DNA of 64,000 nucleotides from a virus. Where the stretch lies: positions 49,440-113,439 of the IMG/VR virus record IMGVR_UViG_3300037419_001822; one strand, given 5' to 3'. Shown here in pieces: positions 1,417 through 38,038 of the stretch (its first letter is position 1; each line of letters begins with the position of its first letter). Below the pieces are notes generated by a model. That model made no database searches. It was not told the DNA's origin and saw nothing but the letters and a program-made list of their open reading frames with translations. A program made the translations under genes and the position numbers.

Positions 1417-1532
1417 TCGGCACCGTCCTCCTTCTGGCCCTGGCGATGGTCCTCGCCGTCTTCGCCGCCGCCGCCGTCGTCGTCCGCCTGGACGACTTCC
1501 TCCACCGAGACCGCAAGGAGAAGCAGCGGTGA
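1413..1532 (+). CDS. Small membrane protein
   Basis: Hydrophobic stretch plus basic tail; coupled at both ends. Confidence 0.55.
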   Translation: MIGTVLLLALAMVLAVFAAAAVVVRLDDFLHRDRKEKQR

Positions 1533-1897
1533 TCACCGCCACCGTCACCGGCCGGATCAACGGCCAGGCCATCCTCGTCCGGTTCGACTACGACGTCGCC
1601 GACCCCTACGCCATCAAGGTCACCTTCGAGGGTGGCGTGGTGTGGCACATCGACCGCGAGCTGCTCAGCGGCGGGCTCCGGCACCGCGTCGGCGAGGGCG
1701 ACGTCCGGATCTGGCCCACCTCGGCGCTCGACTTCTGCATGGTCCTGCGCAACCCGAGGGCGGGGGACTGCTACATCTCGATGCCCCGCGCGCCGATCGA
1801 CAAGTTCTCCGCCCAGGTCCAGGCCACGGCCGCGTGGAGCACGCCGCAGGTGTCGATGGACGCCGAGCTGGACCGCCTGCTCGGCCGGAGCGCCTGA
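1529..1897 (+). CDS. SsgA-like protein (SALP; sporulation/cell-division regulator family)
   Basis: FDYDVADPYAIKVTF..W..RELL..GL...GEGDVRIWP..DAELDRLL matches SsgA-family pattern. Confidence 0.85.
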   Translation: MITATVTGRINGQAILVRFDYDVADPYAIKVTFEGGVVWHIDRELLSGGLRHRVGEGDVRIWPTSALDFCMVLRNPRAGDCYISMPRAPIDKFSAQVQATAAWSTPQVSMDAELDRLLGRSA

Positions 1898-2250
1898 TGC
1901 CCATCGAGTGTCAGCCGCTGGTCACCGAGAGCGGCACCGTCGTCGGCCACATCCAGGTCGCCGACCAGGTCTACCGCCGGTTCCTCGGCGACTGCGAGAT
2001 GTGCGACTGCCGCCGCCGCATGGTGCGCCGCTTCGACGGCATCCACTACGGCTACACCGAGCGCTGCACCGCCTGCGGCTCCTGCTACCAGGACGGCTGG
2101 CGCCTGCACCTCTACCCGGACGACCTGGCCATCGCCCGGAAGTGGTGGAACGAGGCCATCCCCGCCCGGGACTTCGACCGGCGCGTCCGCGACATCGAGC
2201 GCCGATGGGTCGAGGCCTGGGCCGAGGACGACGGGGAGGCTGACGAGTGA
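1897..2250 (+). CDS. Hypothetical Zn-ribbon protein
   Basis: TGATG overlap; CxxC pairs. Confidence 0.65.
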   Translation: MPIECQPLVTESGTVVGHIQVADQVYRRFLGDCEMCDCRRRMVRRFDGIHYGYTERCTACGSCYQDGWRLHLYPDDLAIARKWWNEAIPARDFDRRVRDIERRWVEAWAEDDGEADE

Positions 2251-2387
2251 TCCACCTGCTGCGGCTGGTCGACGCGGTGTGGCACCACGCCCACCTCGAC
2301 CTTCTCCTCGGGCTCTGCGACCGGCTGGCCCTGTGGGTGCACATCCACGTCTGCACCCCGGTCGCCAACTGGGAGATCGGCGAATGA
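2247..2387 (+). CDS. Small hypothetical protein
   Basis: GTGA/ATGA coupled 46-aa ORF. Confidence 0.45.
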   Translation: MIHLLRLVDAVWHHAHLDLLLGLCDRLALWVHIHVCTPVANWEIGE

Positions 2388-2683
2388 GCCCCCGCCCCGG
2401 CCCCGCCTTCTCCAACGGCACCGAGTTCGACATCTGGTCGGCCACGTGGTGCGACACCTGCCTGGCCGACCGGCCGTTCCGCAACGGCATCTCCGAGTGG
2501 GGCTGCCGCCTGATCGAGGTCGCCACCTTCGAGGGGATCCCCGACGAGTGGCTCGACACCGGCCACCCCGGTGACTACCGCTGCACCGCCTACAAGCCGC
2601 TCGGCTGGCGCAAGCCCGCCCCGGAACCCAGGCCCGAGCCGATCCCCGAGGGCCAGCTCCCCCTGTTCGGAGAGGACACATGA
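2384..2683 (+). CDS. Hypothetical Cys-rich phage protein
   Basis: FSNGTEF..WCDTC; coupled. Confidence 0.65.
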   Translation: MSPRPGPAFSNGTEFDIWSATWCDTCLADRPFRNGISEWGCRLIEVATFEGIPDEWLDTGHPGDYRCTAYKPLGWRKPAPEPRPEPIPEGQLPLFGEDT

Positions 2684-3129
2684 CGATCCCCGCGAAGATC
2701 CCCGACTGCACCACCCTGTACTGCCCGCGCCCCGGCACGGTGCCCGGCATCTTCCGCATGGAGATCGAGCGCGACGGCGAGATCCGCGACCACCACGTCA
2801 CCTACTGCCGGGAGTGCGCCCGCTCCATGCACGCCGACGGGCTGTTCTTCCCCGACAACGAGGACGACATCGCCGACACCCCGGAGCTGTCCGAGGAGGA
2901 GCTGGCGATCGTGGAGCGGTTCGAGACCGCCCCGCCGGTGTGCCTGTCCTGCGACGAGGCCGAGGACACGATCGCCCGGGTGCTCGCCCTGGCCGACTCC
3001 CTGGAGGAGCCGGTGTTTCGCGCGGCGGTCTACCGGGGCGAGCGCGACCAGGGCCGCCAGGAGGGCGAGGACGCCGAGCGCCTGCGCATCGCCATCCGGC
3101 TCCGCAAAGCCGTCAAGGGGGCGGCGTGA
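2680..3129 (+). CDS. Hypothetical protein
   Basis: GAGGA RBS; coupled. Confidence 0.65.
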   Translation: MTIPAKIPDCTTLYCPRPGTVPGIFRMEIERDGEIRDHHVTYCRECARSMHADGLFFPDNEDDIADTPELSEEELAIVERFETAPPVCLSCDEAEDTIARVLALADSLEEPVFRAAVYRGERDQGRQEGEDAERLRIAIRLRKAVKGAA

Positions 3130-3542
3130 CCGCGCAGCACAGGCTCGACCTGGCCGAGCCCGGCACCTTCTCCGGGGCCCGCGTCGTCTGCCTCGGCGAC
3201 GCCGACGACATCTGCCAGCAGTGGTGCGCAGAGGGCTGCGAGGAGGAGTGCTTCGAGGACGTCGTCTCGCCGCCCGATCCGGGGCTGATCGCGATGGCCC
3301 CGATCGCCGGGCACCGCTGGGGACCGTACGACGGCGGCTGCCGGGTTGCTGACTGGATCAACAACTGCGGCGTCGAGGACACCTACGCCGACGACATGGA
3401 CCCGGTCCTGTTCGCCTGGGACGACGACGGGGAGACCCAGCCCAACATCCGGGGCGGGCTCATCGAGGAGGAGTGGACCGGCGACGACTACATCTGGTCC
3501 TACGCCGAGCCCCACCCGGACACGGCCGAGGTGGCCGCGTGA
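3126..3542 (+). CDS. Hypothetical acidic Cys-containing protein
   Basis: GTGA overlap; codon bias. Confidence 0.6.
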   Translation: MTAQHRLDLAEPGTFSGARVVCLGDADDICQQWCAEGCEEECFEDVVSPPDPGLIAMAPIAGHRWGPYDGGCRVADWINNCGVEDTYADDMDPVLFAWDDDGETQPNIRGGLIEEEWTGDDYIWSYAEPHPDTAEVAA

Positions 3543-36409: not shown

Positions 36410-36425
36410 CCTTGGTCTGAACGTC

Positions 36426-36473
36426 TGACTGCCCCCGGGGCGTCGTCTACCACAGGCGCTCCGGGGGCAGTCA
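36426..36473 (+). terminator. Stem-loop after capsid gene
   Basis: TGACTGCCCCCGG / CCGGGGGCAGTCA 13-bp inverted repeat. Confidence 0.7.
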
Positions 36474-36497
36474 CCCCCATGCAGTAAGGTTGACCAC

Positions 36498-36854
36498 ATG
36501 TCTGAATCGGTTGACCGAGAGACGACGATCCGCGACCTGATCGACCACGTCGAGTACAACACCGACGCGGCCCGGCACTGCATCGTGGAGATCGAGCCCG
36601 GCGCGTTCGTGGTAACGCGCACCCGAGCCCAGGCTGTGCACCTGCGAGGCGCTCTCGCCGTGTTGCGCGCCCAGCTCCCCAAGGCCGAGATGCTCGGCGC
36701 GCCCGCGAACGCGCTGCCCCCGTCGGCGGCGACCGTGGCGCTCGACAGCGAGCCGGTCACCGACGAGACCGACGAGACCCCCGAATCTGAGCCTGCCGCC
36801 CCCGCCAAGCGGGGACCGGGCAGGCCCCGCAAGGCCGCCGCAACCGGCAACTGA
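36498..36854 (+). CDS. Hypothetical protein with C-terminal AT-hook-like motif
   Basis: KRGPGRPRK; position after MCP. Confidence 0.6.
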
Positions 36855-36943
36855 GTACCACCGCGCCGCCCGCTTCCCCTGGGCTCACCACACCACACCG
36901 CAGAAGAAGCACGACAAGCCCCTCATCGTGGAGACCAGGCAAG

Positions 36944-38038
36944 ATGTCCAGAGGACGGCACGCAGCCCCCGTTCAGCACCCGCACATTGCCCGTGCGGCC
37001 ATCACTACCGGCACGATGCTGGCGGTCACGACCGGCGGCATGGCCGCCATCGCACCCGCCGCGTCGGCCGCCCCCGACAGCGCGTGGGACGCGCTCGCCA
37101 AGTGCGAGTCGTCCGGTAACTGGTCGAACGCCGACACGGGTCACAACGGCCACTACGGCGGGCTCCAGTTCAGCCCCTCCACGTGGAGGGCCTACGGCGG
37201 CCTCAAGTACGCCGACCGGGCTGACCACGCCACCCGTGAGCAGCAGATCGCCGTCGCCGAGAAGACGCTGCAGGGTCAGGGGTGGGGCGCGTGGACGTGT
37301 GCGCCGAAGGCCGGGGTGACCGGCTACGGCGTGAACCTGCGCGACGTCCCGCCGCCGCCTCCGCCTCCCGCGCCGACGCCTCCTCCTCCGGCCGCGCCCG
37401 CTGCGGCTCCGGCCCCGCCGCCGCCCCCGTCGTCGGCGTACACGGTGAAGTCGGGGGACTGGCTGTCCACGATCGCGCCGCGTGTCGGCGAGGACTGGCA
37501 CAAGCTCTACCAGGACAACGTGTCGGTGATCGGCTCCAACCCGAACCTGATCTACCCGGGGCAGGTGCTGGCCGTCGGGTCGGCGGCCCCGGCGGTGGCT
37601 CCGGCCGCCGCGACCGCTCCCGCCCCGCCGCCGCCCCCGCCTCCCGCGCCGTCGGCCGGTCGGCACGCGGCGCACGCGAACATCGTCAACTCGGCCGGGC
37701 CCGTTCGGCCGCAGACCCAGGCCGCCGCCGATGACGTCGTCACCGACGTGCCCGGCGCGGACTCGATCACCCTGGGCGGCACCCGCGCCTCGGCGATCGA
37801 CCCGCACGGCCACCCGTCGGGCCTGGCCATCGACTACATGGTCGGCCTCGGCAACACGGCGCTCGGGAACGCGATCGTGCAGTACCACATCGACCACTGG
37901 GACACGCTCGGTGTCGAGTACATCATCTACAAGCAGCGGATCCTCCTGTCGCCCGGCGGCGCCTGGAAGCCGATGGAGGACCGGGGCTCGCCGACGCAGA
38001 ACCACATGGATCACGTCCACGTGAACTACCGCCCCTGA
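36944..38038 (+). CDS. rpf: Secreted resuscitation-promoting factor (Rpf) domain + LysM + C-terminal M15-like peptidase domain
   Basis: Signal peptide ending ASA; [41 protein letters not shown]; [20 protein letters not shown]; [17 protein letters not shown]. Confidence 0.9.

Follow-up and report, generated by a model that had tools for sequence, protein, structure and literature searches.

Host-Like Division and Cell Wall Genes of a 113-kb Actinophage Contig: Probably Independent Accessory Genes Rather than One Developmental Programme

Whether host-like developmental and cell wall genes that reside in the same phage genome act together is the question raised by a 64,000-nucleotide stretch of viral DNA, referred to here as the window. 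It comprises positions 49440-113439, the right-hand 64 kb, of one IMG/VR viral contig, IMGVR_UViG_3300037419_001822, which is 113,439 bp long. The genes of the window include those of an SsgA-like protein (SALP), a free protein with an Rpf and a LysM domain, a GH73-type glucosaminidase and an Excalibur-like membrane protein. Host development genes, such as WhiB, Lsr2 and SsgA-like genes, are captured time and again by phages of filamentous and sporulating actinomycetes. A first, sequence-only reading had joined the genes of the window into one distributed programme: the state of the host would be sensed by WhiA/WhiB at GACAC boxes, septation would be redirected by the SALP, and neighbouring cells would be woken by secreted Rpf and wall enzymes. 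Coordinates below refer to the window unless they are marked as genome positions, which count along the whole contig.

One Programme or Independent Genes

All of the gene families named by the sequence-only reading were found. The four genes occupy four separate positions in separate operons, distributed across the early, middle and late regions, and the same reading was correct in noting that they are not clustered. The SALP, GH73 and Excalibur genes share stop/start overlaps with unrelated neighbours, and a simple scan reveals no promoter-like site near the Rpf gene. This arrangement argues against a coherent steering system. The genes are genuine, and on balance they are probably independent accessory genes, each of a kind already familiar from phages and either captured from cellular actinomycetes or held in common with them. 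A single programme built from them is very unlikely; the further evidence on either side of it is given below. The main lesson is one of caution in reading co-resident host-like genes as one system.

The SsgA-Like Protein and Its Operon

The SALP is a protein of 122 amino acids encoded on the + strand at 1529-1897. It scores 61.2 bits against the Pfam SsgA model PF04686 (cut-off 25) and matches the solved SsgB structures 6slc (E 1.2e-11) and 3cm1 (E 1.2e-10). When the protein is aligned with eight cellular and three phage SALPs, the family motifs YD..DPYA, W.F.R.LL..G, G.GDVR.WP and the C-terminal D.EL..LL are all seen to be intact, and the presence of an SsgA-like gene is thereby confirmed. 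Relatives in other metagenomes, at 79-98% identity, keep the 122-residue length and every motif, indicating that the protein is under constraint.

The origin of this gene appears to be separate from that of other phage SALPs. The window protein is 34% identical to the SsgB of Streptomyces and lies at much the same distance, 33-35% identity, from SsgB-type proteins in Streptomyces, Frankiales, Geodermatophilus and Blastococcus. It is orthologous to no named paralogue (SsgA-G); the NCBIfam SsgD model gives 43 bits against a cut-off of 185, and as this is the sole SALP model in NCBIfam, the other paralogues are not nameable by it. Cellular SsgB is a closer match to the protein (60.8 bits) than are its counterparts in the phages Dagobah, Francob or Annadreamy (23-32 bits), from which it follows that phages have probably captured SALPs at least three times. 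The phage described here would add the third independent capture. A known counterpart, Dagobah gp31, is described as an “SsgA family sporulation/cell division regulator” (PMC7650747) and is also a single-domain SALP located among early/replication genes. It differs in sharing 31% identity over 103 residues with the window protein, and the greater nearness of the latter to cellular SsgB points to separate acquisitions.

The divergence among phage SALPs is reflected in the searches. No match to the window SALP was found by tblastn among 50,697 phage records, a pattern scan of IMG/VR returned no relatives, and a word-index protein search recovered its own lineage only. Phage SALPs became visible only when the Dagobah protein was used as the tblastn query. 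One further SALP, in a metagenome-assembled genome of the Frankiales (L167), is separated by 5 kb from the gene of a related capsid. It was taken as a host gene because its score resembles that of a cellular SsgB and because the genome has just one other SALP.

The SALP gene is embedded in a rightward early operon. Directly upstream, at 1413-1532 (+ strand), lies the gene of a single-pass membrane peptide of 39 amino acids (Kyte-Doolittle 19-residue maximum 3.02), which is translationally coupled on both sides by GTGA overlaps. Its stop codon overlaps the SALP start, the SALP stop overlaps the next start, and the whole region from about 1006 to 3129 is a chain of GTGA/ATGA overlaps. Within this chain, no promoter- or terminator-like site was detected by a simple scan that finds few promoters in high-GC DNA. 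It is pure conjecture that the 39-residue peptide might serve as a membrane anchor for the SALP, much as SepG does for SsgB. The same operon carries a weakly assigned MazG-like early gene at 507-893 (+ strand), for which there is a GC3 coding pattern and a sub-cut-off Pfam PRA-PH score of 15.5 bits.

One argument for a programme is a divergent WhiB-like open reading frame (ORF) of 104 amino acids, preceded by a strong ribosome-binding site, at genome 48758-49072 (window -681 to -367; L002:1381-1695). It lies 1.9 kb upstream of the SALP gene, in the same direction and operon, and encodes four Cys. The final Cys spacing, however, is x7 as against the family pattern C-x(n)-C-x2-C-x5-C, and the ORF remains below the cut-off of the Pfam Whib model PF02467 (20.7-22.1 vs 23.6 bits). 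The sub-threshold score counts against such a programme.

We infer that the SALP is expressed early in lytic growth and acts on the division machinery. It would most likely bind those host division proteins that are usually organised by SsgB-type proteins (FtsZ, SsgB or SsgA, or membrane anchors), so that septa would be misplaced or division of the sporulation type disturbed within the infected compartment. For a conserved SALP in an early operon near a WhiB-like ORF, it is reasonable to propose such an effect on the division or sporulation of the host. To this extent, the earlier suggestion that the phage alters division or sporulation in the infected cell is plausible, perhaps with a contribution of the WhiB-like protein; the rest of the system to which it had been attached is not supported.

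A different role would be that of a lysogenic conversion gene, expressed from the prophage and changing the morphology, fragmentation or sporulation of the lysogen. The left 49 kb of the contig encodes an integrase and a repressor-like protein (both at genome 35-38 kb) as well as a Cro/Xis-like protein, and the phage is therefore considered temperate. Overexpression of SsgA changes mycelial fragmentation, which would suit such a role. The ssgA morphogene also contributes to mycelial morphology in submerged culture (PMC11302927). On the other hand, the SALP gene is joined to both neighbours by stop/start overlaps within a long rightward early operon, and the lack of a promoter-like site or terminator of its own counts, weakly given the limits of the scan, in the same direction. 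Conversion of lysogens by the SALP is accordingly held to be improbable, and early lytic expression is preferred.

The Rpf-LysM-Mt3 Protein

The second developmental candidate is a protein of 364 amino acids encoded at 36944-38038 (+ strand). Its Rpf domain (residues 42-119) scores 101.9 bits against the Pfam Transglycosylas model PF06737 (cut-off 27), matches RpfB structures at E 3e-26 and retains the catalytic Glu (KCESSGNW) and the Cys pair (WTCAPK). A LysM domain (32.5 bits) occupies residues 166-211. The protein is not equivalent to the characterised Rpf proteins, as it reaches 89.8 bits of the 200 set for the NCBIfam Rpf model and 83.5 bits of the 180 set for RpfC. It had been described as a secreted Rpf-LysM protein. 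Both domains are upheld, yet the description is incomplete in that a third domain follows, and the word “secreted” comes from a reading of the N-terminus.

The third domain (residues 252-361) matches the catalytic domain of VldE at E 1e-16 by sequence. A structural model of this domain (pLDDT 86.9) finds its best folds in VldE entries 9flm, 9fln and 9flh (TM 0.63-0.78, E 1e-8), with the next matches, the LAS zinc peptidases hedgehog N-domain, LdcB and MepA, being non-significant (E 0.3-1.7). Across 18 sequences, five residues of the domain (H60, D67, H124, H127 and H129) do not vary, and these are taken to be zinc ligands. The precomputed annotation for a domain of the Mt3/VldE type is PF26571, an entry that is missing from the local Pfam copy. 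On the combined evidence of sequence and model, the C-terminal domain is a predicted VldE/Mt3-type zinc L,D-endopeptidase.

Two known systems share these modules. VldE is an L,D-endopeptidase, the catalytic module of which was named MT3 by its authors (PMC11667670). Also known as Spr1875, this Streptococcus pneumoniae protein (PDB 9FLH-9FLN) has the same combination of LysM-type wall binding and a C-terminal MT3 module. It differs in having no Rpf domain and in being a cellular stress-response enzyme of a firmicute, whereas the activity of the phage domain is predicted. The second system is found in mycobacteriophage tape measures, in which motif 1 is an Rpf module (Barnyard) and motif 3 is Mt3 (TM4, Che8 and Omega); the Mt3 of TM4 hydrolyses peptidoglycan and aids the infection of stationary-phase cells (PMC1796659). 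These are the same two wall-hydrolase modules, with the difference that they are joined here to a LysM domain and a signal-like N-terminus in a free 364-residue protein outside the tape measure. The protein can thus be described as what appears to be tape-measure motif 1, LysM and motif 3 in the form of a free gene. The tape measure of the phage itself (2190 amino acids; 41737-48309) contains neither Rpf nor the Mt3 motif. Fusion of both motifs with LysM in a free and apparently exported enzyme, alongside a tape measure that is devoid of them, constitutes a natural experiment.

Residues 2021-2085 of the tape measure (47797-47991) give a sub-threshold signal for an SLT lytic transglycosylase (16.8 bits vs 21.3). 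The C-terminal part of the tape measure also matches that of a Streptomyces prophage (L096).

The N-terminus of the Rpf protein is positively charged and is followed by an Ala/Gly/Thr-rich segment that ends in ASA|AP. It resembles an actinobacterial signal peptide, but might instead be a signal-arrest-release anchor, and is conserved in the two close relatives of the phage, the metagenomic fragments L016 and L017.

Proteins with the same order of three domains are encoded in the chromosomes of Geodermatophilus and Modestobacter. They share 45-55% identity with the phage protein across 89-96% of its length and are its closest named homologues; in the Geodermatophilaceae, chromosomal proteins of this build are common. 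Their shared architecture points to the capture of a whole cellular gene. These Rpf-LysM-PF26571 proteins are of similar length and are cellular, whereas the phage copy resides in an operon of virion genes, the late head-tail operon, where it separates the capsid gene from that of the head-tail adaptor. The capsid gene is followed by a strong hairpin. A capsid-adjacent position of the Rpf gene is seen only in L016 and L017; the gene was not found beside the capsid gene in 78 other viral loci or in any of 80 prophage loci, which marks it as an insertion specific to this lineage. It is located 18 kb upstream of the holin gene and does not take the endolysin position of the lysis cassette.

The distribution of the modules bears on what the protein may do. 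The full-length protein matches 913 phage records, mostly the tape measures of Mycobacterium and Gordonia phages, and when only the C-terminal domain is compared, 718 records match, the proteins being both tape measures and endolysins. As Rpf and Mt3 modules are abundant in phages of non-sporulating hosts, they belong to a general actinophage toolkit for breaching the wall and are not tied to sporulation. This speaks against their assignment to a developmental programme. Likewise, the idea that the protein wakes dormant neighbours finds no backing, since it is a predicted two-enzyme wall hydrolase and both of its modules are found in the tape measures and endolysins of actinophages whose hosts do not sporulate.

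The protein would be produced late and exported, combining a glycan cutter with a zinc L,D-endopeptidase that is held on the wall by LysM. Its most likely contribution would be to the breach of the wall at lysis. Possibly, neighbouring cells that are not growing would also have their walls softened ahead of the next infection, in the manner of the Mt3 of TM4. A stronger form of the latter idea is that the protein mainly conditions the next round of infection, with the walls of nearby spores or non-growing cells being remodelled so that these germinate or become penetrable; in effect, tape-measure motifs 1 and 3 would have been moved into a free enzyme. This is consistent with the improvement of stationary-phase infection by the Mt3 of TM4, with the presence of both modules in the free gene and of neither in the tape measure, with cellular homologues that are ordinary exported Rpf-type enzymes, and with the signal-like N-terminus kept in L016 and L017. 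However, LysM would hold the enzyme on the wall of the producing cell, and the same modules are found in endolysins. The free Rpf-LysM proteins of the phages BRock and GiJojo, moreover, are encoded two genes from the endolysin, which suggests a role in lysis. Conditioning as the main role is considered unlikely, and a part in wall breach at lysis remains the preferred account. If it is true that the enzyme acts on non-growing neighbours, the spread of the phage would be linked to the dormancy of its host.

GACAC Sites and GACACGC Arrays

The sequence-only reading had placed GACAC boxes in several intergenic regions and had proposed that the host state is read there through WhiA. GACAC occurs 162 times in the window, as against an expectation of approximately 148-166, and 44 times in intergenic DNA, as against 46.7 +/- 7.3. 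The boxes are therefore at chance level both overall and between genes, and it is only the local arrays that are real. An apparent cluster at 2388-2679 was discarded as it lies within an ORF; its sites at 2453, 2555 and 2675 are hence not intergenic.

A local concentration of eight GACAC sites is found at 16068-16279. The heptamer GACACGC is under-represented in the window (17 copies vs 28.5 expected), and five of the 17 fall within the 119 bp of 16153-16271. Array 1 (16153-16279) consists of GACACGC(C) units that are partly arranged as inverted pairs, such as GACACGGCGTGTC, and precedes a lower-GC island, the first gene of which has its ATG at 16339. Array 2, composed of units of the same kind including GACACGCCGGTGTC, lies 16.4 kb before the window start at genome 33010-33055 (L196), in a lower-GC intergenic region of 560 bp. 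The octamer GACACGCC is present in six copies in 113 kb, all of which belong to these two arrays. In addition, a consensus-like promoter was read from the sequence at 15087-15115 (+ strand; TTGCTT, 17 bp, TAGAAT), with GACAC in its spacer (15101) and again 8 bp past the -10 hexamer (15123).

The arrays at two regulatory regions and the GACAC in a promoter spacer count in favour of a programme under WhiA/WhiB control. Set against this are the chance frequency of GACAC and the nature of the repeated unit, as GACACGC(C) with inverted pairs better fits a dedicated dimeric binder or iterons than a five-nucleotide box. Furthermore, neither array adjoins the SALP, GH73, Excalibur or Rpf gene. With no enrichment of GACAC, and with array units that are longer, partly palindromic and away from the four genes, the proposed sensing of the host through WhiA is not sustained. 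The arrays fit putative operator- or iteron-like sites for a DNA-binding protein, each set in a large intergenic region of the regulatory kind, and nothing in them singles out WhiA as the binder.

Array 1 is the last of three unlike repeat arrays that lie side by side (14557-14940, 15653-15864 and 16153-16279). The neighbouring arrays hold palindromic units of the CCCCGGGG type and units of approximately 17 nucleotides (GCGCGATTTTAGCTCTG...GGTATT), and the promoter at 15087-15115 is located among them, as is a terminator-like hairpin at 15640-15667. Arranged in this way, the region could be an origin, a packaging site or a regulatory hub.

Co-Occurrence in Other Phages

The pairing of SALP and Rpf genes in other phages was the check proposed for a linked system, and its outcome is mixed. 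SALPs above the Pfam cut-off occur in Dagobah, Annadreamy and Francob. In the latter two, gp200 (L010:1459-1845; 52.6 bits) and gp217 (L011:1453-1824; 45.9 bits) are SALPs that had been annotated as “hypothetical protein”. By tblastn, 22 records of Annadreamy-type phages carry a SALP, and every one of the 22 also encodes a free Rpf-domain “hydrolase”. These Streptomyces phages (Stanwilliamsviridae, Loccivirinae) thus resemble the phage described here in having both genes far apart in the genome. They differ in showing no DNA match, in having another capsid and in SALPs that are 26-28% identical to that of the window. The two genes occur together here and in the Annadreamy type, while Dagobah has a SALP but no Rpf gene, and the converse is true of BRock and GiJojo. 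Rpf alone is found in hundreds of phages of Mycobacterium and Gordonia. The Rpf-LysM proteins of BRock (gp43) and GiJojo (gp174), two Streptomyces phages of 112-115 kb, are named “transglycosylase/hydrolase”. They, too, are free proteins and share 44-47% identity over the domains. They are shorter (about 190 amino acids), have no Mt3 and are not part of a head-tail operon.

Two of the three SALP lineages therefore have both genes, and both consist of phages of more than 110 kb. Given this genome size and the frequency of Rpf modules in actinophages, the test does not discriminate. Conservation of SALP and Rpf-type hydrolase in Annadreamy-type phages counts for a single programme; the phages that carry one of the two genes count against it.

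Several observations weigh against the preference for independent genes. Another, unrelated lineage, the Annadreamy type, has both a SALP and an Rpf-domain hydrolase among its core genes, and this pairing, together with the 1.9-kb distance between the SALP gene and the WhiB-like ORF, may be read as some indication of a functional link among the developmental genes. The cluster of eight GACAC sites is compatible with WhiA binding. Finally, the export of the Rpf protein, on which its proposed action at the wall depends, is read by eye from an N-terminus that is weakly hydrophobic (Kyte-Doolittle 1.37).

These points can be assembled into a more elaborate proposal. The WhiB-like protein and the SALP, possibly anchored by the 39-residue peptide, would reprogramme developmental division of the infected compartment, while the late, exported Rpf-LysM-Mt3 protein would condition dormant neighbours for infection. 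Phages of the Annadreamy type would have evolved the two-part strategy on their own, and the arrays might gate the lower-GC island through host WhiA or the phage Wbl protein. Such a scheme is highly doubtful, and a set of independent accessory genes continues to be favoured. In either case, timing, export, binding partners and all functions are deduced from what was observed, namely domain identities, positions, coupling, distribution and motif statistics.

Glucosaminidase, Excalibur-Like Protein and Lysis Cassette

The stand-alone GH73-type glucosaminidase (173 amino acids; 12159-12680, + strand) lies just below the cut-off of the Pfam Glucosaminidase model (29.7 vs 30.2 bits). Its start at 12159 was set by a GC3 frame plot and a GTGA overlap. 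The protein matches PHROG 8124, “endolysin”, at 1.1e-20, and its cluster representative (97% identical) has a precomputed PF01832 match, as do approximately 100 relatives of 165-180 amino acids. The catalytic motif HETG aligns with that of a solved N-acetylglucosaminidase (5wqw). As the gene lies 44 kb upstream of the holin gene, the claim of a glucosaminidase outside the lysis cassette is well founded. No hydrophobic segment, export signal or wall-binding domain was found in the protein. It would be a small cytoplasmic glucosaminidase, from a stand-alone family typical of phages, that meets the wall only after the membrane has been permeabilised. In the isolate-phage collection, its matches are confined to phages of firmicutes. 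Among the 120 best matches, the family (P0129-P0247) consists of stand-alone proteins of 165-180 amino acids found almost solely on metagenomic contigs of 40-130 kb.

The Excalibur-like protein (25051-25716, + strand) has one transmembrane segment (residues 27-55) and a Pro/Thr-rich tail. Its loop reads DADHNGVACE as against the DxDxDGxxCE of the calcium-binding Excalibur domain (PF05901), with one Asp replaced by Asn. The protein matches PHROG 5854 at 4e-4 and is 100% identical in L016. The motif and the membrane segment of the proposed Excalibur surface protein are seen, but the domain score remains below the cut-off (18.1 vs 22 bits). It would be a membrane or surface protein. The gene is coupled by a GTGA overlap to that of a 64-residue protein with an N-terminal hydrophobic, signal-like segment (24860-25054, + strand; Kyte-Doolittle maximum 2.76), which in turn is joined through an ATGA overlap to the gene before it (23670-24863), a PHROG 284 “exonuclease”. 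A glycosyltransferase gene lies downstream of the Excalibur gene.

The canonical lysis cassette is located further to the right. The holin gene (56504-56755, + strand) is identified by PHROG 443 at 2.7e-21. Just upstream of it, at 55159-56088 (+ strand), is the gene of an Amidase_2-like endolysin, a weak assignment (Pfam 24.6 vs 26 bits; PHROG 1493 at 1e-3).

Genome Organization, Relatives and Host

The contig is classed as linear and has a CheckV completeness of 88%. Almost all genes of the window are on the + strand, and its GC content is about 70% except for an island of 62-64% at approximately 15.6-22 kb. By PHROGs and tblastn, the gene content is that of a siphovirus of a high-GC actinomycete with a standard module map. 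The replication initiator (7020-7919) and DnaB (7916-9166) are followed by the small and large terminase subunits (TerS, 29540; TerL, 30267), portal (32140), protease (33845) and capsid (35033). The adaptor (38134), head closure (38666) and major tail (39808) genes precede the tape measure.

The fragments L016 and L017 are close relatives, and megablast of window positions 1-20000 against the 50,697 phage records gave no DNA-level match. The capsid protein is 47-48% identical to those of 76-kb and 110-kb Mycobacterium phages; among species genomes, it is best matched by prophages of Streptomyces, with 50% identity. For TerL, prophages in three of 121 Geodermatophilaceae genomes show 57-58% identity, as against no more than 36% for near-full-length matches among 301 Streptomycetaceae genomes. 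A search for attB with the integrase-flanking DNA in the 121 Geodermatophilaceae genomes yielded short GC-rich chance matches only.

The remaining observations concern other genes. Tail-fibre-like genes at 58909-60222 and at genome 161-1159 are paralogues, which suggests that the contig is circularly permuted. Between 60460 and 63854, two large tail-end proteins are encoded. A weak alginate-lyase-like match was obtained for one, CBM96 and PKD domains together with a signal-like N-terminus for the other, and both look like candidate depolymerases or receptor-binding proteins. An endonuclease-like gene is set among the tail genes on the minus strand (57804-58262), and an HNH endonuclease with several Cys-rich repeats that match a WRKY19-type zinc finger is encoded at 20982-22088. 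Directly upstream of the replication genes, at 6013-6453, lies the gene of a SLOG-family protein related to YspA/cpYpsA (70.4 bits). A sub-threshold Acb2/Tad1 hairpin domain (21.5 bits vs a cut-off of 27) is encoded at 27734-28312; this fold is used by anti-CBASS and anti-Thoeris sponges. Lastly, three proteins (window 1-510, genome 47955-48761 and genome 39870-40238) each contain two to four copies of a motif of the approximate form GT.NGY..H...G...C..C, which resembles a zinc ribbon.

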